Assembly: GCA_022571885.1 (NCBI GenBank)
Contig: JACZWZ010000001.1
Coordinates: 156 to 64,155, forward strand
DNA length: 64,000 nt
Direction of reading: 5' to 3'
Source: Acidobacteriota bacterium
GTDB lineage: Bacteria > Actinomycetota > Acidimicrobiia > Spongiisociales > UBA11373
Below are positions 1 through 19,040 of this stretch, piece after piece. A model generated the notes under the pieces. It was not told the origin of the DNA, ran no database searches, and saw only the letters and a list, made by a program, of their open reading frames with translations. Numbering within the stretch: position 1 is the first letter of the stretch; every line of letters begins with the position of its first letter. A program made the position numbers and the translations under genes.

Positions 1-922
1 TGTCCACCACTTCGGCTCCGCGGATCTCGCCGACGATCACCCGATCGGGGTTCTGGCGGAGGGTGGCCTTGACACAGTCGGCCAGGGTGGCCTCCCCCCG
101 GCCTTCGATGTTGGCGCCGCGACGCTCCCACATGACCTGATCGGGATGCAGGTCGAAGAACCGGTCCAGGCCGATCTCCAGGTTGTCCTCCACCGTCACC
201 ACCCGCTCTTGGGGTGGGATCTCGTTGAGGAGACAGCGCAGCATGGTGGTCTTGCCGGTGTTGGTGCCCCCGGCGACGATCAGGTTCAGCTTCGCCTTCA
301 CTGCCGCCTCCAAGAACGCAGAAAGCCCTCCGTCGATCACACCCAGGTCGACCAAATGCTTGAGCCGGTGAATCGAGAAGTCGTGGCGGCGGATCGTGAC
401 CGCCGGCCGTCCCGTCAACCCCATCACCGCGTGGAGACGTTCGCCGCCGGGAAGCTGAAGATTCAGTTCCCAGGAGACCTGGTCCCAACGCTTCTCCGAC
501 CGGCCCAGACGGCGCGCAGCAGCGGAGATCACCTCCACCAGCTCCCGATCCGAGTCCGCTACCGGTTCGCCGGCGACCTTGGTGCCGTCGCGGTAGACCA
601 GCCACACGTTGTCGAAGCCGTTGACGTGGATGTTGGCCAGTTCCGGGTCGTCGATGTAGGGCTGGAGTCGGCCCAGGCCGTGCAACCGGTCGAACACCGC
701 CTCAGCCAACTCGGCCTCCATCTGCGCGTCGGGGGGGTTATGTCCCTCCCGATACGCCTCCTCCGCCATCCGCTCCAGTTCTTCGGCGATCAGCGATCTG
801 GTCAGGGCCCGTTCGTCCCCAGAGCCCAGACCTCCGTTGCCGTCGACGGCTCGGAGACGCTCGGTGAGCCGCTCGGCCACCGCCTGGTGCAACCTGGCGG
901 TCACAGCACCGTCGACACTCAT
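1..922 (-). CDS. tadA: TadA/CpaF-family secretion ATPase (Tad/Flp pilus), partial: C-terminus runs off the window start
   Basis: Own minus-strand translation from ATG at 922: MSVDGAVTARL...NLIVAGGTNTGKTTMLRCL (Walker A)...LRQNPDRVIVGEIRGAEVVD (CpaF/VirB11-type motif). ATG overlaps TGA of the upstream ORF (ATGA). Absent from ORF track because there is no in-window stop; the + strand ORF 146..1234 is its antisense shadow. Confidence 0.8.
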   Translation of the reverse strand, partial: MSVDGAVTARLHQAVAERLTERLRAVDGNGGLGSGDERALTRSLIAEELERMAEEAYREGHNPPDAQMEAELAEAVFDRLHGLGRLQPYIDDPELANIHVNGFDNVWLVYRDGTKVAGEPVADSDRELVEVISAAARRLGRSEKRWDQVSWELNLQLPGGERLHAVMGLTGRPAVTIRRHDFSIHRLKHLVDLGVIDGGLSAFLEAAVKAKLNLIVAGGTNTGKTTMLRCLLNEIPPQERVVTVEDNLEIGLDRFFDLHPDQVMWERRGANIEGRGEATLADCVKATLRQNPDRVIVGEIRGAEVVD

Positions 923-1701
923 GGGCGTCCCTCCCCACCCACCTCGAATGCCGAGGGCGCCGGTGCGGCGCCGCTCCCATCGGCCACCACAGCGGGTAGT
1001 TCGACAGCCAGCCGCTGGGCCAGCGAAGCCGCCGACCGGACCAATGGTGAGCGGCGTAGATCCTTGCCACCAACCGCGCCGCACAGCGCCCCGGCTGTGC
1101 GGGGATCCCATGCCATCACCCCGGCCACCTCCACCGAGAGGCCCGAGGCCACCTCCGCGGCGTCATACGGAGAATCCCCGACCAGCAGCAGCCTCGCCCC
1201 CAGCCCCGAGACACCGAGCGTGGTGAGCCGGTAGGTGGCGGGGCGTAGCTGATCTGGGGTTGGACGCGTCAACAACAACACACCGTCGGCTTGTTGTAGG
1301 GCAACATCTGTGGATGACCCTGGGGTGAGGCGGCCGCAGTCGGCGATCACATCCACCTCCGTCGAGCCGGCACACCAGTCGGCCAGCGCCGAAGCGAGGT
1401 CCCGTAGCACGGCGTGGGCCTGGTCAGCCGACGGCGGTCCCACCAGCACCGTGACTCCTCCCGGAAGCTGCTGGGCGTGGCGCCACACCATGTCTCCATC
1501 GAGACCATTGCGCGACACCGCCGCCAAAGAGGCCAGGCCCGGCGTGTCTCGCAACCCGAAACGGGCCGCCAGCACCCCTCCGAACGGATCCGCCTCCACC
1601 AGCAGACACCGCCGACCCTCCGGCCACGCCCCGGCCAGGGCCAACGCCGTGGTGGTCACCCCCGGGGAGCCATGCACCGAACACAGACAGACCAGGCTCA
1701 T
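919..1701 (-). CDS. ParA/MinD-like ATPase with degenerate Walker A (Ssd/TadZ-like, like the protein encoded upstream of tadA in M. tuberculosis (Rv3660c))
   Basis: N-terminus LVCLCSVHGSPGVTTTALALAGAW resembles a deviant Walker A lacking the canonical K; sits immediately upstream of and translationally coupled to the TadA-like gene. Confidence 0.6.
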   Translation of the reverse strand: MSLVCLCSVHGSPGVTTTALALAGAWPEGRRCLLVEADPFGGVLAARFGLRDTPGLASLAAVSRNGLDGDMVWRHAQQLPGGVTVLVGPPSADQAHAVLRDLASALADWCAGSTEVDVIADCGRLTPGSSTDVALQQADGVLLLTRPTPDQLRPATYRLTTLGVSGLGARLLLVGDSPYDAAEVASGLSVEVAGVMAWDPRTAGALCGAVGGKDLRRSPLVRSAASLAQRLAVELPAVVADGSGAAPAPSAFEVGGEGRP

Positions 1702-2399
1702 CGTTGGTCCCCTGCCACCAGCACCAGCCGGATATCACCCGCGGCTGCTGCCCGGGCCACCGCTGCGGCGGCGTCGGCGGGTATCCGTAGCGACACGAAC
1801 CGCTGCCCCTGGGTGCCTAGTTCGGCCAGGTCGAACACCTCCGCCGCCGTCACCAACACCACCCCGCCATCGCCCGACGTCACCCCCGCGGGCTCCGCGG
1901 CGGTGCTGATCACGTCCACCAGATCGCCGGCAGTCAGACGCAGCGTCGGATACTCCCCGGCCGACAGCGCCAATCCCACCACCCCCTCGCCGACTTCGAG
2001 CAGGTTGCGGGCCACGAAATGGGCCCGAGTCACGATGGTGCCCGCTTCCAGATCGGCCACTGCGATCAGACCCGTCAACGTCCCCAGCTCGTCGACCGAC
2101 ATCGTGGCCACCGGGTCATCCGTCCCCACGTACACCACCTGGAAGTCACCGGCGTTGACCACCTGGCCACGCTGCACCTCATCGGCCAGCGCCAGTACCG
2201 GATCACGAGAAGCCGCCCCCGAGAACAACACCACCGCCGCCAACGCGCTCAACGCCACCAGCGTCACCGCCACCAGCAGCTGAGGAACCTGCACCCGACG
2301 GTGCGGCGGCTCCAGACGGAACGGGCTCAGGGTGCGCTCCCCATCACCCGACCCGCCGACGTGGCTAGTCGATGCCGGCTTTGCTGATCCTCGGTCCAT
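1698..2399 (-). CDS. CpaB/RcpC-like SAF-domain membrane protein (Flp pilus assembly)
   Basis: Single N-terminal TM (LLVAVTLVALSALAAVVLF) followed by a SAF/CpaB-like beta-rich domain; stop overlaps start of the ParA-like gene (ATGA). Start chosen at MDRG (2399), 1 nt after the upstream stop. Confidence 0.5.
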   Translation of the reverse strand: MDRGSAKPASTSHVGGSGDGERTLSPFRLEPPHRRVQVPQLLVAVTLVALSALAAVVLFSGAASRDPVLALADEVQRGQVVNAGDFQVVYVGTDDPVATMSVDELGTLTGLIAVADLEAGTIVTRAHFVARNLLEVGEGVVGLALSAGEYPTLRLTAGDLVDVISTAAEPAGVTSGDGGVVLVTAAEVFDLAELGTQGQRFVSLRIPADAAAAVARAAAAGDIRLVLVAGDQR

Positions 2400-2400
2400 G

Positions 2401-3297
2401 TCAGCCTCCCGTCTCCACCGCCTGGATCTCGCCCACCGCCACCACAAACGGGGTCGACAGATCCAGGGTGCCGAACACCCCCTGATAGGTGTCGTTGATC
2501 CACCACTCGAACTCCCAGCTCACCGTCACCCGGGCCGAGAAGCGGCCCCCCGGGTGGTCGTAGGAGCTGTGTAGGTAGGTGTAGGAGCAGTCGGTGCCGT
2601 TCTCCCCCAACCCTGACACCCACTCCACCCCCGGTCCCAAACAGGTGACCCCGCCACCGTCGCCCATCACCCACCGGGCATGCGTCGGTGTTGCCCACAC
2701 CGTGACTGTCGTCAACCCCCGGGTCTCCGACGCCTCCAGCAGCCCCCAGTCGGCCGGATCCAGCCACAGCCACGTCGGCACCCGCACAAACGCCTGCCGG
2801 GCCAGCGGCGGGCTCGTCTCAGGCACCGGCAGAGGAGGCTCCAACCGGGCCGACGCCACATCGCGGATCACCTCGAGCGGAACCGGCGGTGTCACCTCCA
2901 CCGCGAACTCATACGAATACGCAACCCAACCGTCCCGCCAACAGTTCGCACCCCACCACCAGTACTCGCCGGTCGGATCGAAACCGACATACGCGATGTC
3001 CCCCTCGGTCAAAGGATCCGACGGATACAGCTCCACCTCATCACCGTCCAGAAACTCCCCCACCACTCGGGCGCAGTGGATCTCCCACAATCGATCCACC
3101 GACCCGCTTCCCGGCTGACCCGGCGTCCGCCCGTGGCATTCCCCAAATACGTCGCCGCCCCTCTGATCAATGCGGCCCTCCCCCGAACAGTGGTTAGCGA
3201 GAGCCGGCGCGGCGGCCAGCGTCACCGCTGGCACAACCATGGCCAGGGCGACAGTCAGACCGAGGGCAACCCCCGCTCCGTTGGTGCGAACTCGCAT
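2401..3297 (-). CDS. secreted hypothetical protein (signal peptide, Trp-rich)
   Basis: N-terminal MRVRTNGAGVALGLTVALAMVVPAVTLAAAPALA signal-like sequence; no recognisable family. Confidence 0.45.
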   Translation of the reverse strand: MRVRTNGAGVALGLTVALAMVVPAVTLAAAPALANHCSGEGRIDQRGGDVFGECHGRTPGQPGSGSVDRLWEIHCARVVGEFLDGDEVELYPSDPLTEGDIAYVGFDPTGEYWWWGANCWRDGWVAYSYEFAVEVTPPVPLEVIRDVASARLEPPLPVPETSPPLARQAFVRVPTWLWLDPADWGLLEASETRGLTTVTVWATPTHARWVMGDGGGVTCLGPGVEWVSGLGENGTDCSYTYLHSSYDHPGGRFSARVTVSWEFEWWINDTYQGVFGTLDLSTPFVVAVGEIQAVETGG

Positions 3298-4294
3298 GCG
3301 AAATCCACCTGTCCTTGCAGATCAGCAACCTTCCACAGCCCACCTTCGAACACCATCACCGCTGATTCCAGATCACGCTGCCCCTCACGTACCGATGGTT
3401 CGTCTGTCAATCGTTCCCCCGTGTCGAGGTCGTACAGGCCATAGTCCGGATCGGCTTCCATGCAGCTGAAAACAACTAGTTCGGTCGGACTGCGGACCTC
3501 TATCACCTCAGCGTGTGTCTCGGGCCGACCTCGCAGCGCCACCCGGCGAGCCTCGTGCTCTTCGAGGAGGCCAACAATGAATCCCTGCTGGGGCTCAGAC
3601 AGCACAGCGTCGACAAGCGGATGATCCGGATCAGGCGGGTCCCAGAAGGTTTCCCGAGCGTCGTAGTAGGCGTCGTAACCAGCGATGGCCGCCTCGGCCA
3701 TCTGCTCTGGCACGCAACCACCACCACTCGGGATGAACAGAGAGACCACCACCCAACCCTGCGCGCCGTTCGCCAGGTCCGCCTGGTACCAGACCCCGAC
3801 GGTGTCCGTGAACGAAAGCGACAGGAGGACGCAATCCTCGATGGTGGCCTTATCCGACCCAAGGTCTGTCACCCTGGCCGAAGTCACCACGTCGGTCTCC
3901 ACAGGTCCCAGCCCCGACTCACGTTGCCGCTCGAACAGCGCAACCACGCCTTCAACCACGTCGGGATCCGCCACTCGCTGCAACGGGGCGGGATCAAGAT
4001 CCTTTGAGGCCCGCACCGCGGACCACGCCGCCCAGAAGGCATTCCAAGCGGCGAGCAGATCCTCCTCCAACGGATCAGGTGCCGTGGTGGTAGCGGTGGC
4101 AGTAGCAGTAGTCGACGAGGTTGGTGAAGTAGATGTCGATGGCGGTGCGGCAGAAGTTGACGTCGCAAGCGAATCAGAGGTTGTGGTCGGAGCGGCAGCC
4201 GGCGAGGCATTGCTGCAGGCCGCAAACACCAGAAACGAGGCCAGGACAGGCGCAAGGAGACTACGTGAAGAAGTCGGGGCTCCGAGCTCCGGCA
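3255..4294 (-). CDS. hypothetical lipoprotein with Ser/Thr/Ala-rich linker; start uncertain (ORF extends to 4445)
   Basis: ...SRSLLAPVLASFLVFAAC lipobox-like signal followed by an S/T/A low-complexity tract and a globular C-terminal domain. GTG at 4294 gives a plausible signal peptide; the first ATG is at 4445. Confidence 0.45.
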
Positions 4295-4452
4295 CCGCTT
4301 GCTGAGGTGCGGTCACGGGCAAGCCCCAACATCCTGTAGCCGAACCAACCCTGAGTATCGAATCACCTGCGGAGGGCGTGGCAACACGCGCGTCACGCCC
4401 CCACGAGTCATCGTCAATACCAGGGAGCGTGTCATCGCTCAACACGCCACAA

Positions 4453-4724
4453 CCCTTTCAGCATGGTGTCTCAGCAAAGTCTCAGCAATCCTTTCAAGCA
4501 CCGGCAGCGACCGCTCACCTCTAGCTACCCAGGGCCTCGACGATGCAGCCATAGGCGCACGATGAACTGCCACCCTTTCAACAGAGTCTCAGCAACCCTT
4601 TCAAACACCCTTGCAGCGGGCCAGCTCAGTCCGGAACAAACACCAGACCCAGCGCCGCATTAGTCAACAATCTCAGAACTCCTGCGTCGGCGCCGGCAAC
4701 AGGATGAGATCGTGTTGAAAGGGT
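4453..4724. promoter_or_regulatory. cluster of short direct and inverted repeats (CCTTTCARMCA and GTCTCAGCAA motifs) upstream of xis; candidate Int/Xis arm-type sites or xis promoter
   Basis: Read directly: ccctttcagca (4453), gtctcagcaa x2, cctttcaagca (4490), ccctttcaaca (4572), gtctcagcaa, ccctttcaaaca (4596), inverted tgttgaaaggg (4713) about 20 nt before the xis ATG. Confidence 0.4.
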
Positions 4725-4743
4725 CAGGACGCACGATCAGCAC

Positions 4744-4971
4744 ATGGATCAGCTCGACCACCTCCTGACCGCCCAGGACCTCGCGGCCTACCTCGACGTG
4801 CCCCTGACAACGCTGTACGCGTGGCGATACCGTGGAGAGGGTCCGGCTGGCTTTCGCGTCGGCAAGCACCTCCGGTATAGACGGAGTGACGTGGAACAGT
4901 GGATCCGAGAACGCGTCGGAGAGTCACAGCCCAATCGCCGACGACCGCCTTCTGCGCTGGACCATCCTTGA
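4744..4971 (+). CDS. xis: excisionase / HTH_17-family DNA-binding protein
   Basis: 75 aa; LTAQDLAAYLDVPLTTLYAWRYRGEGPAGFRVGKHLRYRRSDVEQWI matches excisionase-type winged HTH; sits directly upstream of the integrase. Confidence 0.75.
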   Translation: MDQLDHLLTAQDLAAYLDVPLTTLYAWRYRGEGPAGFRVGKHLRYRRSDVEQWIRERVGESQPNRRRPPSALDHP

Positions 4972-5038
4972 GAGCCACCGGTAGAGTCGCCGCCAAGGTG
5001 CCGACGTTACGGCAACCCATCACGCGGGGGGAAGCGCT

Positions 5039-6205
5039 ATGGCCAGCATTCAGAAACGACACACCGCGAGCAGTGAGATTCGTTGGGATGTCCGCTACCG
5101 GGACCCCGATCAGCGCCACAGGACGAGGACCTTTCATCGCAAGGTCGATGCACAGAAGTTCGCCAACCTTGTGGAGGCCGATCTCGCCCGAGGCGAATGG
5201 CTCGACCCTGGACTCGGCAAGGAAACCTTCGGAGAGTGGGCACGTCGCTGGCAGTCAACCATCGCGGGCCTCGCGCCCAAGACTCGGGAAAGCTACGAGT
5301 CGATCCTCCGCCGCCACCTGTTGCCCAGGTTTGAGAACACGCCGGTGTCGCGCATCGATCATCCGATGGTCCTGGCACTGATGGCTGAGCTCACCTCCAC
5401 CGGGTCCGGCGCAGGCACAGTACGAAACGTACGAGACGTGCTTCGCCTCATCCTCGAGCTGACGCGACGTTCAGGTGCTATTCGGACCAATCCCGTCGAA
5501 GGAGCGAAGGTCCCGAAGAAACCGCCCGCCCAAATGGTGTTCTTGAACGCCGATCAGATCATGACCCTCGCGCAGGAAGTAACCAACCCTCCGATCAGGA
5601 GGGGCGCCGGCGAACACCGACGCGCTGCTTATCCGGAGCGAGGACTCCTCGTGCGCTTTGCCGGCTTCACTGGTCTCCGCTCGGGCGAGATCGTGGCCCT
5701 GCGAGCCGAGGCCATCGATTTGATGCGAGGCCGCGTCCAGGTCCTGGCTTCAGCCAGCGAGGCCTACGGCAAACTCCAATTCGGGCCCCCGAAGACGTAC
5801 CAACGCCGGTCGGTGCCCCTCCCGAAGACTCTTCTCGACGAGTTGACGACCCACCTTGCAAGCAAGGACTCCTCGGACTTCGTGTTCGTGTCGGCGAGGG
5901 GTGGCCCGCTCCGGCACTCAAACTTCTACGCGCGGCACTTCAAACCGGCGGCGATCCGATTGGGCCTGCCACAGACAACCCGCTTTCACGACCTCCGACA
6001 CAGCTACGCGGCGATGCTCATCGCGGAAAACGCCCATCCCAGAGCCATCATGGAACGCCTCGGCCACAGCACGATCCAGGTCACCCTCGGTACGTACGGG
6101 CATCTGTTCCCAAGCCTCGAGGCTTCGCTGACCGAGGCCCTCGACGACGTGTACCGAGGAGCCAAGCCGACGCCGCCAGCCAAGGTGCGAGAAATCAAAG
6201 GCTAA
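5039..6205 (+). CDS. int: tyrosine-type site-specific recombinase/integrase (phage/ICE type with N-terminal arm-binding domain)
   Basis: N-terminus SIQKRHTASSEIRWDVRYRDPDQRHRTRTFHRKVDAQKFANLVEADLARGEWLDP is typical of actinobacterial element integrases; C-terminal catalytic R...HDLRHSYAAMLIAENAHPRAIMERLGHSTIQVTLGTYGHLF (His-x-x-Arg and Tyr). Confidence 0.9.
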   Translation: MASIQKRHTASSEIRWDVRYRDPDQRHRTRTFHRKVDAQKFANLVEADLARGEWLDPGLGKETFGEWARRWQSTIAGLAPKTRESYESILRRHLLPRFENTPVSRIDHPMVLALMAELTSTGSGAGTVRNVRDVLRLILELTRRSGAIRTNPVEGAKVPKKPPAQMVFLNADQIMTLAQEVTNPPIRRGAGEHRRAAYPERGLLVRFAGFTGLRSGEIVALRAEAIDLMRGRVQVLASASEAYGKLQFGPPKTYQRRSVPLPKTLLDELTTHLASKDSSDFVFVSARGGPLRHSNFYARHFKPAAIRLGLPQTTRFHDLRHSYAAMLIAENAHPRAIMERLGHSTIQVTLGTYGHLFPSLEASLTEALDDVYRGAKPTPPAKVREIKG

Positions 6206-6612
6206 TCAGTCACCCACTCATGGTCGGTAGGTGATCGATGCATTCGATGCAGGGTGCGAAAAGACCCGCTGCGTAGCATGTCGATAGCCGATCAGGAGCA
6301 ACCAGGATGGCCGAATCCCCCCGGACCCTGGTTGAGGACCTAGCCGGAAGTTTCAACCAGACCGTCCTCGACCATGACACCCTCACGAGCCACAGTGTCC
6401 TCGATGCCCTTGCGGGTCCCCCATCTCTCTGGTAGGGGATCCGGTCTCAGACAGCACACATACGTATCACGAATAACTTCAAGAAAGACCGGAACAGCGA
6501 CCAAAACCTGGCGAGGCATGACTCATCAGCGCAACGGCGGGTCAGTCGGCCCGCGCCATGGACGCGCGATGGAGCCTCTTCGCAGCTCGGAGCAGGACAA
6601 CCCAGAACTCCG

Positions 6613-6640
6613 AAAACCCTTGCGGTACAAGGGTTTTCGT
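6613..6640. terminator. hairpin between int and tRNA-Met (cgaaaacccttg cggt acaagggttttcg), possible bidirectional terminator
   Basis: Perfect 12-bp inverted repeat read directly, immediately 3' of the tRNA (minus strand) and downstream of int. Confidence 0.5.
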
Positions 6641-6643
6641 TCG

Positions 6644-6717
<74 letters not shown>

Positions 6718-6868
6718 TCGTTGGACCCGGAGCATACGGACCCCTCCACTCCTGTGCAAGGTCACGTAGCCTTTCGGCCCTGAACCCGATGTCCGCAGTC
6801 ACACAGGGACGTCGTGCGCCAGCTTCACCCGACCCGCGACTGAAGATCGACCCCTCTGACGCCGATGA

Positions 6869-7546
6869 GTGTTTATGGCCGTCGCACTACTGGAGGATGT
6901 CGGCAGCTCGCGGCGTAGCGATCTTCGCCGTGAGCTGATTGTGGTAGATCCGCGCCCTCTGTTTGCTGATGCCATCTCGGCCGGCTTCGACTCCGGCGAA
7001 TGGCTGGTCCACATCCTCGCCCCGGAGGTGGTGTCCGACATCCCGATTCGAACCGGCATCGGTGTGGTGGCGCTGGCCCGACCCGACCCGGCGGAAGTGG
7101 TGGCAATCCTCGCCGCTCGAGACAGACGGGTGATCGTGTACGGAAGTGACCAAGGGGCGATGTTTTTCGAGGCCGTCGAGGCGGGTGCAGTCGGATTCGT
7201 CTCCGATCGGGCCGAGGCCGGCGAGTTCGGACGGGCGGCGACGGCACTACGCAATGGGGCCCCGTCGGTGTTCCCGGAACACACCCGGCGCCGAATGTCG
7301 AGCCCCGGGTGGCCGGCTGCCGACAGCGGCGTTGTCGAACTGGAACGCCTGACCCGACGGGAACGAGAAGTGCTCAATGGGCTGGTCGCCGGGCTGAGTC
7401 CCGCCGCAATCGCCGAACGGGATTTCGTCTCGGTGATCACCGTGCGCAACCAGGTGCAAGCCATCCTCACCAAGCTGAACGTTCACTCGCAGCTCGAGGC
7501 GGTCGCCACCGTGCACCGCTACGGCTGGATGCTTCACACCGCGTAA
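6869..7546 (+). CDS. LuxR-family transcriptional regulator with atypical N-terminal receiver-like domain
   Basis: C-terminal LTRREREVLNGLVAGLSPAAIAERDFVSVITVRNQVQAILTKLNV is a LuxR/GerE-type HTH; N-terminal part resembles a degenerate REC. Same strand as flp and directly upstream. Confidence 0.6.
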   Translation: MFMAVALLEDVGSSRRSDLRRELIVVDPRPLFADAISAGFDSGEWLVHILAPEVVSDIPIRTGIGVVALARPDPAEVVAILAARDRRVIVYGSDQGAMFFEAVEAGAVGFVSDRAEAGEFGRAATALRNGAPSVFPEHTRRRMSSPGWPAADSGVVELERLTRREREVLNGLVAGLSPAAIAERDFVSVITVRNQVQAILTKLNVHSQLEAVATVHRYGWMLHTA

Positions 7547-7703
7547 GACCGCGCATCCTCCAAAACCTCCGCAAACGGTCACTCCCTTTGATGTATCTGC
7601 ATCATGACACGACCACAGAGATTGGTCAGGGTGAGGCAACGTACTAAGTCGCTGGGCACGAAATGACTAGTACGTCGAACGACAGATAGAGGAGGTAGCG
7701 CCC

Positions 7704-7874
7704 ATGTTGAAGCGTCTGTACATCGCCCTGCAAAGCAGGGACGACGGCGCAACGATGGTGGAGTACGGCCTGATGGTCGCGCTCATCGCCGTGGTTGCCC
7801 TGGTAGCCGTCACCGCCCTCGGGGGCAGTGTCAGCGGCATCTTCCAGAACGTCGCCAACACGCTGACGCCATGA
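7704..7874 (+). CDS. flp: Flp-family type IVb prepilin (56 aa), absent from ORF track because under 60 aa
   Basis: Own translation: MLKRLYIALQSRDDGATMVEYGLMVALIAVVALVAVTALGGSVSGIFQNVANTLTP. G/ATMVEYGL is the Flp processing motif followed by a hydrophobic helix; GAGGAGG RBS at 7689-7695; stop TGA at 7872-7874. Confidence 0.8.
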   Translation: MLKRLYIALQSRDDGATMVEYGLMVALIAVVALVAVTALGGSVSGIFQNVANTLTP

Positions 7875-7886
7875 AAACACCGTCTG

Positions 7887-7916
7887 GGTCTCGGGGGGTT
7901 CGAACCGCCCGAGACC
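7887..7916 (+). terminator. stem-loop just after flp (ggtctcggggggttcgaaccgcccgagacc); candidate partial terminator/attenuator
   Basis: 9-10 bp GC-rich stem read directly, 13 nt after the flp stop and 16 nt before tadE. Confidence 0.4.
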
Positions 7917-7931
7917 AGGACGGAGTCTCTT

Positions 7932-8294
7932 ATGAAACGCGACGACGGAGCAGCCCTCGTAGAATTTTCCCTGGTACTCACCCTGCTGGTGATGATCACC
8001 TTTGGGATCATCGGCTTCGGGCGGGCCTACAACGCTCAGGTGACACTCACCCACGCCACCCGTGAGGGTGTGAGGGTGCTGGCGATCACCGGCGATGCCG
8101 ACGCCGCCGCCGCCGCCACCAAGAACGCAGCCACCACTCTCGATCCGGCACTGCTCACGATCACCACCAGCGCCTGCTCTCCCGGATACCCCACCGAACT
8201 GACCGCCTCCTACCCCTTCGAGCTCGATATTCCGTTCTGGGGAACCCAGAACCTCGACCTCAACGCCACGGCGGTGATGAGATGCAGCGGCTGA
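7932..8294 (+). CDS. tadE: TadE-like pseudopilin
   Basis: N-terminus DDGAALVEFSLVLTLLVMITFGIIGFGRAY matches the TadE-like domain. Confidence 0.75.
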   Translation: MKRDDGAALVEFSLVLTLLVMITFGIIGFGRAYNAQVTLTHATREGVRVLAITGDADAAAAATKNAATTLDPALLTITTSACSPGYPTELTASYPFELDIPFWGTQNLDLNATAVMRCSG

Positions 8295-9244
8295 ACGGCG
8301 AACGCGGCGTCGTCGGGGTGTTCGTCGCCCTCTCGATGACCATTCTGATTGGCATGCTCGGCTTTGCCGTCGATATCGGGGCTCTCTACAACGAGCGACG
8401 CCAGCTGAGCAATGGAGCGGACGCCGCGGTGCTCGCCATCGCAGAAGACTGTGCTCTGGGTGTCGGGTCTTGCGACCCGGCCACCGCCACCGTGACCGCC
8501 CGGAACTTCGCCAACGCCAACGCCAACGACGGCTTCGCCTTCATCGAAGACGTTTCCCTCGACCTGAACGCCCGGACGGTGCGGGTCGAGGTGGGCACGC
8601 TCGAAACCGACGGGGGCCGGGTGCTCACTCCCTTCTTTGCCCAGGTGGTCGGGTGGGACGGATCCACCGTCCACGCCTCTGCCTCGGCACTCTGGGGGTA
8701 TCCCAGCTCGATGCGCGGCGTGCTGCCGTTGATCATCTCCGAATGCGAATTCCCGCTCGGCACTGCGGTTCCCACCGCCAACTTGATCCTCACATTCCAC
8801 GAGGGAAACAACACCGAAGAGTGCAACGCGGTCGCCGGCCAGGACATGGACGGCGACGGCAAGCTGGCGGGAGGGTTCGGCTGGCTCGCCACCAACGGGA
8901 ATTGCGGGTCCGACCTGTCCACCGGCAGCTGGATCTTCGCCGACACCGGCTCCTCGCCATCCAATGGATGCTCCCTGCCGGACCTCAGCGGGCTTATCGG
9001 CATTCCGACTCCGCTACCGATCTTCGACGACATCGCCGGTGTCGGAGCCAACGGGCAATACCACATCTCGGGCTTCGGGCTCTTCGTCATCACCGGTTAC
9101 AACTTCGGCGGTCAGTACAAGGTCAACCCGCCGTGCTCGGGGTCCACCCGCTGCGTGTCGGGCTACTTCACCCCGGGCACCGTCCACGACGGCGAGCCGG
9201 GCGGACCGAATCGTGGAATCGTCATCGTCAAGTTGACCGGATAG
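8282..9244 (+). CDS. tadG: TadG-like pilus assembly protein
   Basis: N-terminus GVVGVFVALSMTILIGMLGFAVDIGALYNERRQLSNGADAAVLAIA is the TadE/G-like membrane anchor; large Cys- and Gly-rich extracellular domain. Confidence 0.7.
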   Translation: MQRLNGERGVVGVFVALSMTILIGMLGFAVDIGALYNERRQLSNGADAAVLAIAEDCALGVGSCDPATATVTARNFANANANDGFAFIEDVSLDLNARTVRVEVGTLETDGGRVLTPFFAQVVGWDGSTVHASASALWGYPSSMRGVLPLIISECEFPLGTAVPTANLILTFHEGNNTEECNAVAGQDMDGDGKLAGGFGWLATNGNCGSDLSTGSWIFADTGSSPSNGCSLPDLSGLIGIPTPLPIFDDIAGVGANGQYHISGFGLFVITGYNFGGQYKVNPPCSGSTRCVSGYFTPGTVHDGEPGGPNRGIVIVKLTG

Positions 9245-9253
9245 GAGACGGAA

Positions 9254-10087
9254 ATGCGCAGAGCCATCGGAATCATCGGGGCCGTCGCCGTAGCCGCCCT
9301 CGGCACACTGCTGTTGGTCGGCTACGTACGCGGTGCCGAGGACCGCGCTCTGGCCGGCGAGGAACTCGCCGACGTGCTGGTGGTCGATTTACCGATCGCC
9401 CAGGGGACCCCGGCCAGCAATCTGACCCCATTCGTCCGCCTGGAGCAAGTCCCGATGAAGATCAGGGCCGAGGGCGGTATCGCCGACCTGGCCACCCTGT
9501 TCGACCTGGTGGCCGCCACCGACCTCCTCCCCGGAGAACAGCTGGTGGCAGCGCGCTTTGTGACCGCCGAGTCGCTCGAGAAACACGCCCGAATAGAAGT
9601 ACCCGCGGACGCCCTCGAGGTGACGATCTCGATTTCACCGGAGCGAGCGCTCGGCGGCCAGCTGGTTCCGGGTGACGTGGTGGCCGTGATCGCATCGTTC
9701 GACCCCTTCGACCTGAACACGTTCGAACCATCCGACCTGGGCCCGGGCGAGATCATCGACCCCAATGAGATCTTCCTGGGAGCATCCGACAACGATCCCG
9801 GTTCCTCTGTGCGATCACCCACCTCCACCGGTCTCATCCTGCACAGAGTGCTCGTAACTGCCGTGCAGTTGGAGCAGCTGCCCCGATTGGCCGGCGATGA
9901 CCTCCCCGAGGACACGCCGGAGCTGGCACCGACCGGCAACCTTCTGATAACGCTGGCAGCAGAGGTGGACGACGTCGAGCGAATAGTGTTTGCCGCCGAA
10001 CACGGATTCATCTGGCTGGCATCCGAAGGCACGGACGTCGTCGACTCGCCGACGCCGATCCAAACCCGGGAGACGGTCTACCGATGA
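9254..10087 (+). CDS. cpaB: CpaB/RcpC Flp pilus assembly protein (SAF + RcpC)
   Basis: N-terminal TM then SAF-like region (ADVLVVDLPIAQGTPASNLTPFVRLEQVP...GEQLVAARF) and C-terminal RcpC-like region. Confidence 0.75.
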   Translation: MRRAIGIIGAVAVAALGTLLLVGYVRGAEDRALAGEELADVLVVDLPIAQGTPASNLTPFVRLEQVPMKIRAEGGIADLATLFDLVAATDLLPGEQLVAARFVTAESLEKHARIEVPADALEVTISISPERALGGQLVPGDVVAVIASFDPFDLNTFEPSDLGPGEIIDPNEIFLGASDNDPGSSVRSPTSTGLILHRVLVTAVQLEQLPRLAGDDLPEDTPELAPTGNLLITLAAEVDDVERIVFAAEHGFIWLASEGTDVVDSPTPIQTRETVYR

Positions 10088-11265
10088 GACCGATAATCCT
10101 CGCCGGCTCGACCGACCCCTTCGCCCGCAAGGTGTACGAAGCGATCGGCGACGACCTGCGGGATCGGGTTCGTCTGTGGACCCAGCACCTCGCCGACCCG
10201 GGCGGGCTGGAGGCGCTGCTCGACACGCAACCGGCGGTGGTGGTCCTCGGCCCGGGACTGGTCGACGAGGTCTCACTCCGCTTCGCCCAACAGATCGATG
10301 CCGAGCGTGCCGAGGTCGGAGTAGTCGTCGTCCAGAACGCCGGGACCAACGTCGAGGCCGCGCTGGCCGCCGGGGTCCGCGGGATCCTCAGCCAGGACTC
10401 CGATGCCGATTCGATCAGGGCCGCCATCGAAGGGGCAGCCGCATCCGTCGATCGCTACGAAGAGAGAGCGCAGACTCAGCTACGCAAGCCGTCGGTCGGC
10501 CGGGCCAAGGTCACAACGGTGTTGTCTCCCAAGGGCGGAGCCGGCAAGACGGTCCTCAGCACCAACCTGGCGGTGGGGCTCGCCTCGGTGGCGCCGCGCG
10601 GCGTGGTGATCGTCGATCTCGATCTCCAATTCGGTGACGTGGCCTATGCCCTCGGTCTCAAGCCGCGCCACACCATGTACGACGTCGTATCGACCGCCGG
10701 GCCGCTCGACATCACGACCCTCAAGGTGTTCCTCACCCACCACTCCTCCGACCTCTACGTGATGTGCGCCCCCGATGAGCCGGCTCGAGGCGAAATGATC
10801 GGAGTGGAGGCCGTGCAGCAGATCATCAGTCTTCTCGCCGCCGACTTCGATCATGTTGTGGTGGATACCCCGGCGGGGCTCAGCGAACACACCCTGGCGA
10901 CGCTCGACCTGTCGACCGACGTGATCTTCCTGGCAGACATGGACGTTCCCAGCGTTCGCCATCTCACCAAGGTCATCAAGGCCTTCGATCGCCTGGGGAT
11001 GCGGAGCGCCGAGCGCCACTTCGTCTTGAACCGCGCCGATGCCCGGGTCGGCCTCACCATGATGAAGGTGGCCAACCAGGCGGGCCTGGCGATCGACATC
11101 AAGATCCCGTTGTCGAAGCAGGTCCCGATAGCTCTCAACGCGGGTTCCCCGATCATTCTCTCCCATCCGAAGAATCCGGTAAGCCGCAAGATCTGGGAGA
11201 TCGTGGAACGACTCGCCGGCCCACAGATGCGGGAGACCAGGCAACCGTTGAAATGGAGTGCGTAA
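10084..11265 (+). CDS. cpaE: CpaE/TadZ (receiver-like N-domain + ParA/MinD ATPase)
   Basis: VLSPKGGAGKTVLSTNLAVGLA Walker A (KGGxGKT) plus N-terminal pseudo-receiver; start overlaps cpaB stop. Confidence 0.85.
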   Translation: MRPIILAGSTDPFARKVYEAIGDDLRDRVRLWTQHLADPGGLEALLDTQPAVVVLGPGLVDEVSLRFAQQIDAERAEVGVVVVQNAGTNVEAALAAGVRGILSQDSDADSIRAAIEGAAASVDRYEERAQTQLRKPSVGRAKVTTVLSPKGGAGKTVLSTNLAVGLASVAPRGVVIVDLDLQFGDVAYALGLKPRHTMYDVVSTAGPLDITTLKVFLTHHSSDLYVMCAPDEPARGEMIGVEAVQQIISLLAADFDHVVVDTPAGLSEHTLATLDLSTDVIFLADMDVPSVRHLTKVIKAFDRLGMRSAERHFVLNRADARVGLTMMKVANQAGLAIDIKIPLSKQVPIALNAGSPIILSHPKNPVSRKIWEIVERLAGPQMRETRQPLKWSA

Positions 11266-12642
11266 ATGAAGTTGAGTGACCGGCTCCAGGCCATCGAACC
11301 CGACCAAACACCATCGTCGCCGGGTAACGGACAGGTCGGAGAGACGATTCCATCCAGTGATCCACTCGCCGAATTCAAGGGCATGGCCAAGCAGGCCCTG
11401 TACGGCAAGCTGGAATCCCAAGCATTTGGCAGCGCTCTGGGAGAGGGAGAACTCAAGGCCACGGTGATCAAGGAATTGGAGAGGTTGATCGCCGACACCG
11501 ACATCCCGCTCAGCGCCGCCGAACGGGAGCGCATCGCCGAGGAAATCAGTGAGGACATACTGGGGTACGGGCCGATCCAGCGCTTCCTCGATGACCGCGA
11601 GGTCACCGAGATAATGGTCAACTCCACCAACCCGATCTTTGTGGAGCGCGCCGGAAAGATCAGTCGCACCACATCCCGCTTCTCCAGCGAAGAACATCTG
11701 CGCCAGGTGATCGAACGGATCGTTGCCAGCGTCGGGCGCCGCGTCGACGAAGCGTCACCGATGGTCGACGCCAGGCTCCCGGACGGCTCACGGGTGAATG
11801 CGATCATTCCCCCCCTGGCAGTCGATGGACCGGCCCTGACCATCCGCAAGTTCGCCGCCGACCCGTATGGGGTCGACGATCTCATCCACTTCAAGACGAT
11901 GACCCGTCCGATGGCAACGCTGCTGGCGGCTTGTGTGGAGGGAAAGCTCAACATCCTCATCTCCGGTGGCACCGGTTCGGGGAAGACCACGCTGTTGAAC
12001 GTCATGTCGTCCTTCGTCCCTGCCAACGAGCGGATCGTGACCATCGAGGACTCGGTCGAATTGCAGCTTCTTCAGGAGCACGTGGTGCGGCTGGAAAGCC
12101 GACCCGCCAACATCGAGGGGAAAGGACTGGTGACCATCCGCGACCTGGTGCGAAACTCGCTGCGGATGCGCCCCGACCGGATCGTCGTCGGCGAGGTACG
12201 CGGAGCCGAGGCGTTGGACATGTTGCAGGCGATGAACACCGGCCATGAGGGCTCGATGTCCACGCTGCACGCCAACAGTCCGCGCGACGCGCTGAGCCGC
12301 CTCGAGACAATGGTGCTGATGGCGGGACTGGACATCCCGGTGTCTGCAGTGCGCGAGTACATCTCCTCGGCGCTGAGCGTGATAATCCAACTCTCCCGAA
12401 TGAGCGACGGCACCCGCCGCATCACCCAGGTGTCCGAGATCGTCGGCATGGAGGGCGAGGTGATCACGATGCAAGACGTGTTCCGCTTCCACCAGACCGG
12501 TGTGGACGACGAGGGCAAGGTCATCGGCGGCATTATCCCCACCGGCATCCGACCCCAGTTCGCCGAACAGCTCTCCAGAGCAGGCCTGAAGCTTCCGGCC
12601 GGGTTGTTCGGTGGTCCGACCGCCAAGGAGAAGGCTGCGTGA
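11266..12642 (+). CDS. cpaF: CpaF/TadA secretion ATPase
   Basis: [16 protein letters not shown] Walker [49 protein letters not shown]. Confidence 0.9.
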
Positions 12643-14543
12643 GACCGCTCGGCGCCATCGCAGTCGTCTTCGTAGCACTGGCGATATCGATCCCGGCATT
12701 GGCCGAAGAAGGCCTGGTGATCGAGTCCGTCGACATCACCAACGCGCCCGAAATGTCGCTGGTCATCTCGATCCCTGCTGAGGTGGTGGCGACAGATCCG
12801 GTGGCGTCGGACTTTGCGGTCCTGGTAGAAGGCATCCGGGTCTCGGCCGACGTGTTTGCCCTGGTGCGGGACCCGATGGAAGTGGTGATCGTGATCGATA
12901 CCTCCGGGAGCATGGCGGGTGAGCCGATGCAGGCGGCGACTTCTGCCGCCCTCGGGTTCATCGATTTGCTCCCCGAATCAGCCCTGGTGTCATTGGTCAC
13001 CTTCGGCGACGACGCGGTGGTCCGTAACGCCATGGGGGCGACTCGATCCGAGGTCGCCGAGTCTCTCTCAACCCTGATTGCCGAAGGGGAAACCGCTCTC
13101 TACGACGCCACGGTCACCGGCGCGTTGCAATTCACCGATGCCGACGCCAGACACGTCTTGGTGGTCCTCTCTGATGGAGCAGACACGGTGAGCACCGCCG
13201 GCCTCGACCAGGCGATCGCGGCTGCCGCAGAAGCAGACGCCGAGGTGCGGGCAGTCGCCCTGCAGACTTCTGAGAGCGCCCACGACGCTCTGTCGGCCCT
13301 GACCTCCACCGGCTCGATCACCACCGCGGTCGATGCCGCCGACCTGGCGGCCGCGTACCAGATCGTGGCACTCGAACTGACGGGCCGATATCGACTCACC
13401 TTCCAGGCGGCGTCGACCGGCTCGGTCCAGATCGATGTCTTCGTCAACGGACCGACGCGGGTGTTGTCATCCTCCCAGGTGGTCGATCTCGCCAGCGGAG
13501 TCGTCAGTCGAGGAGGTTCACCACAGCCGATTCCGGCGGGTTTCGGCCAAAACCCGGCGGCAGCGGTCCCGGTCGTCAAGGCCGAGCCGACCGGCCTCAG
13601 CTCGAGCTGGACCCTGCCGGCCGGGGTCGCCCTGGTGTTCGTCGGTGCGTTGACCATGCTGTGGCTGACGTCAAAGGATGACGAAAACCCACTGGCGTTC
13701 GAGGCTCCGGTCGAAGTCGATCAATCGATCGAGCGAGCCGGTTTCATCCCGGCCGTCGGAAGAAGGGCGAGGGCGATCGGGGAGCGAATCGCCGGGCGTA
13801 ACGATGCCGGGGCCATGGACCGCGCCCTGGATCGCGCCGGAGTCGCCCTGCGTCCCGGAGAATTCGTCATTGTCTCGGCAACCGGGGTGGTCGTCGGCGT
13901 GACCGCCGGACTCGTCATGGGCGGCACCATCGGCGCGGTATTCCTGGGAGCAGCAGCCGCGGCAGCGCCCCGAACCATTCTGCGCACACTGGCCAATCGG
14001 CGTCGGCGCGCCTTCGCCAACCAACTCGAAGGCAGTTTGCAGACGATCGCCGGGAGCCTGCGTGCCGGCTACGGGTTGGTGCAAGCGATGTCGACCGTCG
14101 CCGAAGAGTCGCCGTCGCCGACCTCAGACGAGTTCAACCGGGTTGTGGTCGAGTCACGCCTGGGGCGATCGATCGAAGATTCGCTGGCCGCGATGGCCGA
14201 GCGCCTCGAAAACGAGGATCTCGGCTGGGTGGTCGAAGCCATCGAGATCCAGCACGAGGTGGGCGGCAACCTGGCCGAGGTTCTCGACACCGTGACCAAC
14301 ACCATCCGCGAGCGCAACCAGCTCCGGCGCCAGGTGCAGGCACTCAGCGCCGAAGGCAAGATCTCCGCCATCATCCTGGTGTCGCTGCCGCTGGTGATCG
14401 CCTTCTTCATCGCGATAATCAGCCCCGACTATCTCGCCGAACTGACCGATACCGGCGTGGGCCGGATCATGATTGGAGTGGCGGCAATACTCATGCTCGC
14501 CGGCGCCGCCTGGATCAAAAAGATCATCAGGGTGGAATTCTGA
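12639..14543 (+). CDS. tadB: fusion: signal peptide + secreted von Willebrand factor A (VWA) domain + C-terminal TadB (T2SS-F family) membrane domain
   Basis: [22 protein letters not shown] signal; [13 protein letters not shown] (DxSxS MIDAS) ...[11 protein letters not shown] features in residues about 80-250; TM; then [16 protein letters not shown]... typical TadB/GspF-like region with C-terminal TMs. Confidence 0.75.
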
Positions 14544-15451
14544 TGCTGGGCGTACCTGTCTACGTCGTGGCGGCGGCCGGGATGGTGGTGGCAAGCTTGC
14601 CGCTGCTGGCGTGGTCGGTCGGCGGAAACCGGAGCAAGGTTGCTCCGACAGGTTTCGTCGATGGGCCGATCGATGAGCGGCAGGTGTACTTGCGGGTGGG
14701 GCCGCTCGATCGGGTCATCGTTCCGGTGGCCCGTTATCTGGGCCGTAAGGTCCGCCGAATCACCCCCGTGGGTTGGATCGATTCGCTGGAGCGGCGGATT
14801 CGACTCGCCGGATCTCCCGACGCCTGGCCGGTGGAGCGGGCACTGGCACTCAAGATGGTTCTCGGGATCGTGGGCGCCCTGGGGACTTGGGCCGCGAGAG
14901 GCAACGCTTTTGGCCTCTCCGACCTCGGGCTGAGCGCTCTCGGAGGTCTGGTTGGATACTTGCTGATCGATCTGATCCTCTACTCCCGCGGCAAGGAGCG
15001 TCAGAAGAAGATCCTCAAATCGCTTCCCGACACACTCGATCAACTCACCATCAGCGTGGAAGCGGGACTCGGATTCGACGCCGCCCTGATGAGAGTCACC
15101 TCCACCGGGACCGGCCCTCTCGCCGAGGAGCTGACCCGAGTGCTGGCCGAGATCAAGGTCGGCGTCCAACGGACCGACGCCCTGAAACACCTGATCGAAC
15201 GCACCGACGTCTACGAGCTGCGCCACTTCATCCTGGCGTTGAACCAGGCGGAGCAGTACGGGCTTCCGGTGGCCCGAGTGCTGCGTATCCAGTCCGGAGA
15301 CCTTCGGATCAAGCGGCGTCAGCGGGCCGAAGAAGAGGCCATGAAGATCCCGGTCAAGATCGTGTTCCCCCTCGTTTTCTGCATCTTCCCGGCGCTATTC
15401 GTGGTCCTGCTGGGACCGGCCATGATCCGGGTCTCGCGGGCTCTGCTCTAG
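14543..15451 (+). CDS. tadC: TadC (T2SS-F family) inner-membrane platform protein
   Basis: Three TM segments with cytoplasmic LPDTLDQLTISVEAGLGFDAALMRV...QAEQYGLPVARVL GspF-like domain. Confidence 0.8.
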   Translation: MLGVPVYVVAAAGMVVASLPLLAWSVGGNRSKVAPTGFVDGPIDERQVYLRVGPLDRVIVPVARYLGRKVRRITPVGWIDSLERRIRLAGSPDAWPVERALALKMVLGIVGALGTWAARGNAFGLSDLGLSALGGLVGYLLIDLILYSRGKERQKKILKSLPDTLDQLTISVEAGLGFDAALMRVTSTGTGPLAEELTRVLAEIKVGVQRTDALKHLIERTDVYELRHFILALNQAEQYGLPVARVLRIQSGDLRIKRRQRAEEEAMKIPVKIVFPLVFCIFPALFVVLLGPAMIRVSRALL

Positions 15452-15456
15452 CTAGA

Positions 15457-15830
15457 GGAAGTCACCAGTCTCCAGTCTCCAGTCTCCAGTCTCCAGTCAG
15501 AATTCAGATTCGGAGGGAGGCCATCCTGCTGAGTGGCTGACCAAAGAACTCCAGTCCCCACTTGAGAAGTCCCCGGTTTCCGGTCCCCAGTCGCTAGTCA
15601 GAATTCAGATTCGGAGAGAGGCCCCTCCTGATGACTGGCGGCTTAGAGGCCGCGCGGATAGGCGGGATGCGACCGCCGGTGCCTCGTGAGCCCTTGTGGA
15701 ATATCGCCCTGCGTGTGAAACATCCGTCCATGTTTCACCCAACCGCTGAGTCTCTTAGTACTGAAGTCTTGCTGGAGACTGGAGACTGACGACTGACGAC
15801 TGACGACTGACGACTGACGACTCCTCTACG
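15457..15830. repeat. heptamer tandem arrays as inverted arms ((CAGTCTC)x4 ... (GGAGACT)x2(GACGACT)x5) bounding about 270 nt with two 28-nt direct repeats (gtcagaattcagattcggagRgaggcc) and a 9-bp perfect hairpin (gtgaaacat ccgtcc atgtttcac)
   Basis: Read directly in the convergent tadC / UPF0182 intergenic region. Confidence 0.7.
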
Positions 15831-18954: not shown

Positions 18955-19040
18955 TGCCGTCGAGTATCCAGTTCAGACTGGTTACTGGCTACTGGCTACT
19001 GGTTACTGGCTACTGGCTACTGGTTACTGGTTACTCTGCC
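18955..19040. repeat. (TACTGGY)x8 heptamer tandem array, preceded by two copies of gtcgagtatccRgt
   Basis: ggttactggctactggctactggttactggctactggctactggttactggttact read directly between the DivIVA-like stop and UPF0182 start. Confidence 0.8.

Follow-up and report, generated by a model that had tools for sequence, protein, structure and literature searches.

How did a chromosome of the class Acidimicrobiia come to carry two differently organised Tad/Flp pilus-type gene clusters on either side of an integrase gene and a tRNA-Met gene, and what might the mobile one of the two be doing there? The DNA analysed, referred to here as the window, is the whole 64,000-nt stretch of contig JACZWZ010000001.1 (approximately 63% G+C), and in a homologue search its nearest named relatives were Acidimicrobiia metagenome-assembled genomes. 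A sequence-only reading of the window had placed two Tad systems around an int/xis/tRNA-Met junction and suggested that at least one of them had arrived on an integrative element. All of the features that it listed were recovered in place, and a synteny break with relatives L042 and L048 (L-numbers denote the related contigs and loci examined) identifies the left cluster as the one that came with the element. Positions 1–6642 are very probably the integrase-proximal (attL) end of an ICE (integrative and conjugative element) inserted in the 3' end of the initiator tRNA-Met (tRNA-fMet) gene, of which the window holds approximately 6.6 kb, with the Acidimicrobiia host chromosome from 6643 onwards.

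The insertion junction consists of the following features.

4744–4971, plus strand: excisionase gene xis, HTH_17 (PF12728, E=1.2e-15; TIGR01764 'excise' 30.9 bits, over the NCBIfam cut-off of 28.8 bits).
5039–6205, plus strand: tyrosine integrase gene int, read towards the tRNA 3' end (PF00589, PF22022, PF14659).
6552–6642, no strand assigned: conserved element end abutting the tRNA, kept in L009 and L015 and not in L042 or L048.
6643–6717, minus strand: initiator tRNA-Met gene (ARAGORN), 3' end facing int.

The site-specific recombinase expected at one border of an ICE is thus present as int and xis, and integrase orthologues of 78–82% identity adjoin the same Tad-like cluster in L009, L012 and L015. 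The initiator type of the tRNA was read from the sequence, with no tool classification, from a C1/A72 mismatch and three anticodon-stem G-C pairs. A terminator-like hairpin at approximately 6603–6639 (−26.3 kcal/mol, z=−4.3) is followed by U's on the tRNA strand. Relatives lacking the element were located by look-up of the exact 56-aa Flp sequence of the right cluster in a contig collection; the identical protein was indexed in 66 blocks, and the 23 longest contigs were read. L042 (89.5% nucleotide identity) and L048 (87.7%) align from window position 6637/6640 rightwards, through the tRNA, the LuxR-type gene, the right cluster and the UPF0182 gene, alignments of related contigs to the window falling at 86–90% nucleotide identity overall. 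To the left of the tRNA 3' end both contigs are unrelated to the window, with no int and no left cluster. In a junction alignment the window groups with L009 and L015 on the element side, whilst L042 and L048 share another flank. This break in synteny with element-free relatives defines an attachment site at the tRNA-fMet 3' end.

Sequence comparison identifies the 3'-terminal 44–46 nt or so of the tRNA gene (about 6643–6688) as the predicted attachment core (attL), approximately 45 bp reading GTAGCGGGGGC[A/G]GGATTTGAACC[C/T]GCGACCTTCGGGTTATG. Three further direct copies of the tRNA 3' 44–54 nt are present in L042 (272–317, 3139–3192 and 5979–6022; approximately 2.9-kb spacing), and these putative att repeats of small tandem islands define the core used here.

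Some side observations concern the same site. Positions 1–9042 of L042 contain three tandem islands of approximately 2.9 kb at tRNA-fMet, without integrases and each bounded by a 44–54-bp copy, which encode 585-, 428- and 673-aa proteins of unknown function and a DUF732 protein and may be mobilisable in cis by an ICE integrase. The near-identical contigs L047, L050 and L051 begin inside the tRNA, and such breaks hint at a polymorphic junction. The tRNA T-arm has a compensatory pair, GCGGG/CCCGC in the window and L015 versus GCAGG/CCTGC in the element-free L042 and L048; this fits replacement of the tRNA 3' part by the attP copy of the element, ordinary species divergence also being possible.

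On the other side of xis, the left Tad-like operon occupies window positions 1–4445 and reads leftwards out of the window.

1–922, minus strand: tadA/cpaF-like secretion ATPase, N-terminal 307 codons, running off the window (PF00437 T2SSE, E=1.5e-26).
919–1701, minus strand: ParA/Ssd-like protein, 260 aa (TIGR03815 35 bits versus a cut-off of 154; no Pfam hit).
1698–2399, minus strand: SAF-domain CpaB/RcpC-like protein (PF08666 SAF, E=1.3e-6; weak RcpC match; TIGR03177 28 bits).
2401–3297, minus strand: sec298, a secreted 298-aa Cys/Trp-rich protein (signal peptide read from the sequence).
3255–4322/4445, minus strand: sec396, lipoprotein-like, first gene of the operon (lipobox-like 'VFAAC' read from the sequence).

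The order of genes agrees with that first described, except that two secreted proteins are present where one had been counted, and the ATGA overlaps said to couple all of the genes occur at tadA/parA and parA/SAF, with a 1-nt gap at the next junction. The SAF protein start at 2399 was taken from the sequence together with gene calls in L043/L045, and the true start of sec396 is probably at 4322, giving 355 aa (as called in L045/L046). The identification of the minus-strand 1–922 translation as TadA/CpaF, proposed earlier as a check, held up against the T2SSE model. The full-length protein is 433 aa in the 99%-identical contig L046, which continues into tadB; this version has Caulobacter CpaF as its best PDB match (162 bits), VirB11 being more distant. 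Among NCBIfam models, TIGR03819 scores highest for the left ATPase (213 bits versus a cut-off of 373, scored on the L003 orthologue). The degenerate Walker A reported for the ParA-like protein reads 'HGSPGVTT', and the P-loop lysine is missing from the window protein and from all aligned homologues. It thus lacks the deviant Walker A KGGxGK[ST] of a catalytically competent TadZ/CpaE, and is a probable non-catalytic analogue of that protein. ParA-like homologues numbered 742, with 58–77% identity among the relatives listed beyond the two nearest clusters.

The window takes in no more of the left cluster than the ATPase N-terminus and the genes upstream of it, and the remaining Tad components were read largely from orthologous loci. 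Between them these supply a CpaF-class ATPase, two T2SSF proteins, a Flp-like prepilin and TadE/TadG: TadC scores with the T2SSF model, the TadE genes with TadE and the TadG gene with Tad, whilst the TadB orthologue, which has no Pfam hit, owes its assignment to its position and to plasmid counterparts annotated 'type II secretion system F family'. The 72-aa Flp-like prepilin shows a processing-type motif, G|AMSTE, in which E5 is present, together with a hydrophobic helix; it is without Tyr6 and without a Pfam hit. In relatives the module runs in the order lipoprotein, sec298, SAF, ParA-like, TadA, TadB, TadC and prepilin, and continues with TadE, TadE, TadG and a membrane protein of approximately 1100 aa with LysM/BTAD domains. 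Identities in relatives are 55–66% for sec396 (tblastn) and 60–71% for sec298, a conserved member of the first half of the module that has no Pfam or NCBIfam hit. The sec298 C-terminal domain, covered by no family model, matches 168 actinobacterial PLSDB plasmids, 133 of them from Streptomyces.

This domain (for example L038 31142–32017) mostly carries the annotation 'ATP/GTP-binding protein', and in some cases no Tad cluster accompanies it. A 36-kb Streptomyces clavifer plasmid was considered as a minimal model and set aside, having only a sec298-like domain protein and no Tad cluster, so the domain also occurs alone. As a separate observation, two independent assemblies (L001 and L002) end at the same tadA base, approximately 155 bp left of the window start, and another ends in tadB, which suggests that the tadA–tadB stretch is repeated or polymorphic in the communities sampled.

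Relatives of the left cluster were gathered from the contexts of ParA-like matches and from two anchored scans, one of genomes with sec298 and one of metagenomes with the giant LysM/BTAD protein. A GC3-based (G+C at third codon positions) open reading frame (ORF) caller missed the parA-like and lipoprotein genes and was used for orientation only, beside tblastn and indexed gene calls. Had the cluster been vertically conserved without int/xis, the mobile-element interpretation would have suffered; the opposite was found, the upstream border being a recombinase or relaxase in 10/10 distinct Acidimicrobiia loci with a visible flank. The window-type int/xis lies at tRNA-fMet in the window and L009, and the same int/xis is present in L012, whose contig ends 1.1 kb beyond int with no tRNA visible. 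L015 has a partial int of this type 5.5 kb from tRNA-fMet. A second int type is found at tRNA-Asn (L017, also L007) and a third borders the module in L014. In L003 the border is a large serine recombinase beside housekeeping genes, and in L005 and L016 TrwC directly precedes the module. Related TrwC elements were located at tRNA-Val and tRNA-Ala.

The same contigs carry the genes expected of a conjugative element, since a relaxase, a coupling protein and a VirB4-family ATPase were seen with the orthologous Tad-like cluster on relatives' contigs, outside this window. An ArdC-N/DnaG-Toprim primase gene and a divergent gene for a 1030-aa TrwC (MOBF) relaxase lie downstream in L021, L023, L024, L026–L028, L032, L036 and L037. 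L040/L041 encode a VirD4-type coupling protein, an 840-aa AAA_10 (VirB4-family) ATPase, a TcpC/VirB8-like protein and an M23/SLT hydrolase, and a 500-aa protein of this type IV secretion system (T4SS) operon has no Pfam hit. On the 401-kb contig of L007/L040 the element spans approximately 58 kb and abuts tatA/tatC. From these related copies the element would be laid out as att, int and xis, the Tad-like operon, variable cargo, ArdC-primase divergent from TrwC, more cargo, and then the T4SS operon closed by the VirD4-type coupling protein. Cargo seen in relatives includes restriction-modification, toxin-antitoxin/HipAB, DUF499/HEPN, and REase and defence genes. The Tad-like module is the most constant block of the element, whilst its intervening genes vary from copy to copy: when two elements were compared, identities were 53–83% for Tad-module proteins and 51–75% for T4SS-module proteins, and the genes in between were unrelated.

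Individual copies show further features. A search of the 401-kb contig for att sites found no short identical core. Patchy direct repeats extend over approximately 250 bp between L040 2025–2275 and L007 5157–5385 (70 bp at 84%, 28 bp at 89% and 18 bp at 100% identity), upstream of the T4SS and xis-int operons respectively, and by their sequence look regulatory. The L007 copy also carries a remnant of a window-type integrase C-terminus (6960–7091) adjoining the Tad-like operon, as well as an IS110, and appears composite. In L017 (8800–20200), the module at tRNA-Asn on a 372-kb contig, tblastn matches are split in the lipoprotein, TadC, both TadE, TadG and giant protein genes, either because the element is decaying or because a long-read assembly has introduced frameshift errors. 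TrwC was tried and rejected as a fixed anchor for the family, an approximately 72%-identical TrwC being found also in other layouts (L034 and L035, no Tad cluster within 10 kb), which indicates that the family is modular.

These loci bear directly on whether the left cluster could instead be a vertically inherited actinobacterial Tad locus of the ssd-tadA type, with int/xis a small, separate phage or island remnant. The sequence-only reading had likened the left operon to M. tuberculosis ssd-tadA (Rv3660c–Rv3659c), and the order SAF/CpaE-like/TadA/TadB/TadC/pilin/TadE does resemble the actinobacterial arrangement. With the M. tuberculosis Rv3654c–Rv3660c locus it shares CpaE-like (degenerate Walker A)/TadA/TadB/TadC/small pilin/TadE-like. 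Distant homologues in Pseudonocardia and Catenuloplanes (L019, L020) have no integrase hit nearby, and inside the window no att repeat separates the cluster from the element. However, the left proteins score far below the cut-offs of the Rv3659c and Rv3660c families, at 213 against 373 bits (TIGR03819) for the ATPase and 35 against 154 bits (TIGR03815) for the ParA-like protein, no DEAH helicase neighbour was seen, and membership of the ssd-tadA family was rejected. The right cluster, although also short of both cut-offs, is the nearer of the two to these families (CpaF 345 bits, CpaE 54 bits). Relatives of 86–90% identity retain the tRNA and the right cluster entirely without the left cluster, which in Acidimicrobiia relatives travels with varying recombinases and sites plus TrwC, coupling-protein and T4SS genes. 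Vertical inheritance is on this evidence largely refuted and can be considered highly improbable.

The host side of the junction carries the second, resident Tad/Flp locus and its chromosomal flank.

6869–7546, plus strand: LuxR/GerE-type regulator (PF00196, E=2.3e-12), upstream of Flp also in L042 and L048.
7704–7874, plus strand: Flp prepilin, 56 aa, G|ATMVEY (PF04964, E=2.2e-11).
7932–8294, plus strand: TadE (PF07811, E=9e-15).
8282–9244, plus strand: TadG-like pseudopilin (PF13400, E=1e-10).
9254–10087, plus strand: CpaB/RcpC (PF16976).
10084–11265, plus strand: CpaE/TadZ with an intact KGGAGKT motif (ParA/AAA_31/CbiA).
11266–12642, plus strand: CpaF/TadA (T2SSE 230 bits; 427 bits to Caulobacter CpaF; TIGR03819 345 bits).
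12639–14543, plus strand: VWA-TadB fusion (PF00092/PF13519 VWA and PF00482 T2SSF).
14543–15451, plus strand: TadC (T2SSF).
15826–18789, minus strand: UPF0182 membrane protein, a chromosomal flank marker (PF03699, 931 bits).

Flp, the ATPase, TadB/C, TadZ, TadE/TadG and CpaB are all present above Pfam gathering scores. The complete flp-tadE-tadG-cpaB-cpaE-cpaF-tadB-tadC locus described earlier is therefore in place, with the correction that TadB is fused to a VWA domain. Its description as 'proteobacterial-style' holds for gene order, which is that of the canonical Aggregatibacter tad and Caulobacter cpa loci, but not for the absence of a secretin or for the ATPase score of 345 bits against the actinobacterial TIGR03819 model. 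Unlike canonical Tad loci it has no secretin or TadD, as expected for a monoderm, carries the VWA domain on TadB and has no TadV in the window: a Pfam scan of the 56 window ORFs gave no Peptidase_A24 and hence no dedicated A24 prepilin peptidase (TadV/CpaA), which may lie elsewhere in the genome. The ATPases of the left and right systems are 35% identical, the right being canonical and the left divergent by their scores to Caulobacter CpaF (427 and 162 bits), and the left ParA-like protein and the right CpaE have no BLASTP similarity.

The right locus might itself, also or instead, be a horizontally acquired island between UPF0182 and tRNA-fMet. The distant L009 has UPF0182 87 bp from tRNA-fMet and no intervening Tad locus, the tadC–UPF0182 gap is bordered by heptamer tandem repeats, and the composition of the right cluster departs a little from the backbone (codon-usage distance 0.055 versus a 95th percentile of 0.050; GC3 0.80 versus 0.756). 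The left genes differ more, reaching 69–70% G+C against a backbone maximum of 66.3% and a codon-usage distance of 0.070, beyond all 500 backbone resamples. The comparison of G+C and codon usage that had been suggested for the left region thus shows it to be significantly off the backbone, with the right slightly off, and since both clusters deviate, composition alone cannot tell which is mobile. Against acquisition of the right locus, the UPF0182 of the very distant L009 is only 43% identical, and all relatives of the lineage (L042, L047–L051), whether or not they carry the ICE, keep the locus in the same order and place relative to the tRNA and UPF0182, UPF0182 adjoining the right cluster in L042, L047 and L049. 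Moreover, the locus is on the tRNA's 5' side, with the integrase on the other, and has no recombinase or att repeat. Its acquisition as an island is accordingly unlikely, an older transfer being conceivable. Judged from these alignments, the right cluster is part of the conserved backbone of the lineage and everything left of 6643 is the predicted insertion. The resident locus would represent an independent adhesion-type Tad pilus.

Two features of the right region were recorded in passing. VWA-TadB is a 634-aa protein with an N-terminal signal/transmembrane segment, and the fusion is kept in L042 (629 aa) and L049 (634 aa). Perfect or near-perfect intergenic tandem arrays of heptamers are located just after tadC (15460–15498, AGTCTCC x5.6), just before the UPF0182 stop codon (15784–15822, GACTGAC x5.6) and upstream of UPF0182 (18977–19035, ACTGGCT x8.4). 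The remainder of the window, beyond both Tad regions, consists of housekeeping genes, amongst which a hybrid CheA-like kinase with Hpt, HATPase_c, CheW and receiver domains is encoded at 54662–56713.

With the left cluster assigned to the ICE, the question becomes what a Tad-like module contributes to such an element, and the region between the module and xis bears on this.

4446–4743, no strand assigned: divergent control region (298 bp) separating the Tad-like operon from xis-int; contains ACCCTTTCA in four exact copies.

The 9-mer ACCCTTTCA has 4 copies in the window against 0.22 expected, all within 4452–4724, and one copy is flanked by the inverted repeat GATCGTG...CACGATC. In related elements clusters of ACCCTTTCA are found upstream of both the Tad-like operon and the T4SS genes and also between primase and TrwC, often inside a unit of approximately 23 bp or a GATCGTG...CACGATC palindrome. 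This distribution suggests that one regulator acts on excision, DNA processing, the T4SS and the Tad-like operon through a putative ACCCTTTCA operator.

The module is also found with conjugation genes outside the Acidimicrobiia. Matches to the ParA-like protein were obtained in 59 PLSDB plasmids of Actinomycetota. On 4/4 of those inspected, from Streptomyces, Embleya, Microbacterium and Xylanimonas, a SAF/ParA-like/TadA...LysM module lies beside or near TcpC-like, VirB4-like and hydrolase genes, and on the Streptomyces plasmid the module and the T4SS genes form one co-directional array. Only the Embleya and Streptomyces plasmids have annotated genes for a coupling protein and a relaxase, and an A24 prepilin peptidase is added on 2/4. 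As a side observation, all four plasmids (L039, L052, L053 and L054) are typed 'non-mobilizable' by MOB-suite in PLSDB, and standard typing seems to miss this conjugation system.

A mechanism can be proposed, its first steps following established ICE biology. Int and Xis would excise the element by recombination of the tRNA-borne core with a repeat beyond the window, TrwC would nick at an oriT, probably in the primase–relaxase intergenic region, and the coupling protein would feed the DNA to the T4SS. Less certain is a role for the Tad-like module as a core, co-regulated part of the transfer apparatus and not ordinary cargo, in which a short Flp-like filament, assembled by the module, would cross the thick wall and make or stabilise donor–recipient contact; this mating-contact pilus role is suggested by analogy with the accessory pili discussed below. 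The resident right locus may supply prepilin peptidase to the ICE module, a proposal made because none was found in the ICE parts examined. The equal divergence of Tad and T4SS modules, the constancy of the former, the shared motif and the pairing on plasmids point, at the level of sequence, to machinery over cargo, and a mating-contact filament is tentatively proposed on this basis. A bolder reading, less likely than not, makes the module an indispensable structural component of a hybrid T4SS–Tad machine, widespread across the ICEs and plasmids of Actinomycetota and regulated jointly with excision and DNA processing via ACCCTTTCA.

Several observations weigh against this interpretation or the ICE assignment beneath it. 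A search of the window with the tRNA and its flanks, the att-repeat check called for by the sequence-only reading, gave no repeat of more than 12 bp (chance level), because the far end of the element lies beyond the left edge. The attR, T4SS and relaxase of this copy are likewise outside the window, and the nearest contigs end in tadA/tadB; its completeness, activity and boundaries are thus taken from relatives. The compositional signal is modest, with the right cluster slightly atypical too. Gene order varies, with TrwC directly upstream and inverted in L005 and L016, and in L034 and L035 TrwC lies beside int with no Tad cluster within 10 kb. The Acidimicrobiia ICE parts that were inspected yielded no prepilin peptidase. 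With a T4SS that already looks complete on the element, transfer may not require the Tad-like module, and the authors describing the tad plasmids of Cutibacterium acnes call their link to conjugation unclear (PMC5696575).

It is therefore possible, if far from established, that the left cluster resides on the ICE as adaptive cargo, an adhesion or biofilm Tad pilus of the 'widespread colonization island' kind with no part in DNA transfer. True cargo such as restriction-modification, toxin-antitoxin and defence genes differs from copy to copy, however, whereas the module is the most constant block and its position beside int/xis is fixed. Tad pili are classically adhesins and are often transferred horizontally, and the ICE already carries a full Gram-positive-type T4SS, both of which favour cargo; the host, on the other hand, already has a Tad locus of its own. 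The tad locus of the C. acnes plasmid has been discussed as a colonisation factor (PMC5696575). Set against this are the occurrence of the same module with T4SS genes on plasmids of four other actinobacterial genera, co-directionally in Streptomyces, and the operator-like motif common to the promoters of the module and the transfer genes.

A further possibility, considered improbable, is that the module serves DNA uptake or recipient-side functions (transformation, entry or surface exclusion) instead of donor mating contact. In Micrococcus luteus, natural transformation, but not adherence, depends on the tad genes, according to the account of PMC4322843 cited in PMC5696575. No competence genes (ComEA/ComEC) were seen beside the module, although a DprA-like gene (DNA_processg_A) does occur in L037, and donor functions are favoured by the association with genes for the relaxase and the T4SS and by the promoter motif in common.

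Amongst known systems, T4SS-type MOBF ICEs of Actinobacteria encode Int, TrwC, VirD4-like and VirB4-like proteins (Ghinet et al. 2011, PMC3218068; Bordeleau et al. 2012, PMC3429521). The element described here resembles them in its tyrosine integrase directed into a tRNA 3' end and in its TrwC, VirD4-type and VirB4-like proteins, and its size in a relative, approximately 58 kb, is comparable with the 71 kb of Fcci3350. It differs from the described actinobacterial ICEs in having a Tad-like operon as a constant core block beside int/xis; the text of both papers names no 'Tad' or 'CpaF', only a generic 'pilus', and Acidimicrobiia are absent among their element-carrying genomes. On the linear tad plasmids of C. 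acnes (p15.1.R1, pIMPLE-HL096PA1 and related transferable ones), as here, tad lies beside a conjugation locus, which comprises FtsK/coupling-protein-like, VirB4 and TcpC genes, and a pilin-like product was detected at the cell surface (PMC5696575). These are linear plasmids and not a tRNA-integrated ICE, and the likeness is one of gene pairing. The IncI R64/TP114 thin pilus and the PAPI-1 pilus likewise combine type IV filament genes with an adjacent T4SS (PMC9045228, PMC12857230), and these accessory pili promote (IncI, in liquid mating) or are essential for (PAPI-1) transfer through donor–recipient contact. They are proposed as a working analogy for the left module, although they belong to diderm Proteobacteria and are of type IVb, equipped with PilQ-type secretins and PilV adhesins, whilst the left module is Tad (type IVc)-like and monoderm, with a ParA-like pseudo-ATPase, a SAF protein and the LysM/BTAD giant protein.

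Literature searches gave no paper describing a T4SS and Tad-like pairing beyond the C. acnes plasmids. The loci considered here apparently form a coherent, unstudied group in which a divergent Tad-like operon is the constant partner of a VirB4/VirD4/TcpC T4SS and a MOBF relaxase, and the group spans ICEs of uncultured Acidimicrobiia and plasmids of Streptomyces, Embleya, Microbacterium and Xylanimonas. For annotation, adjacent Tad loci are not necessarily paralogous adhesion systems, one here belonging to the host and the other to a mobile element. Conjugation in Gram-positive bacteria is generally described as pilus-less and using surface adhesins, and how donor and recipient find and hold each other in thick-walled Actinomycetota is poorly understood outside the Streptomyces TraB system. 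A hybrid T4SS–Tad machine, if true, would give monoderm bacteria their first dedicated conjugative pilus, or wall-spanning filament, and would account for the 'non-mobilizable' typing of these plasmids. If the module works in mating, such plasmids would be reclassified, the old label of TIGR03819, 'TadA family conjugal transfer-associated ATPase', would be explained, and conjugation in a major phylum would become directly testable in culturable hosts.

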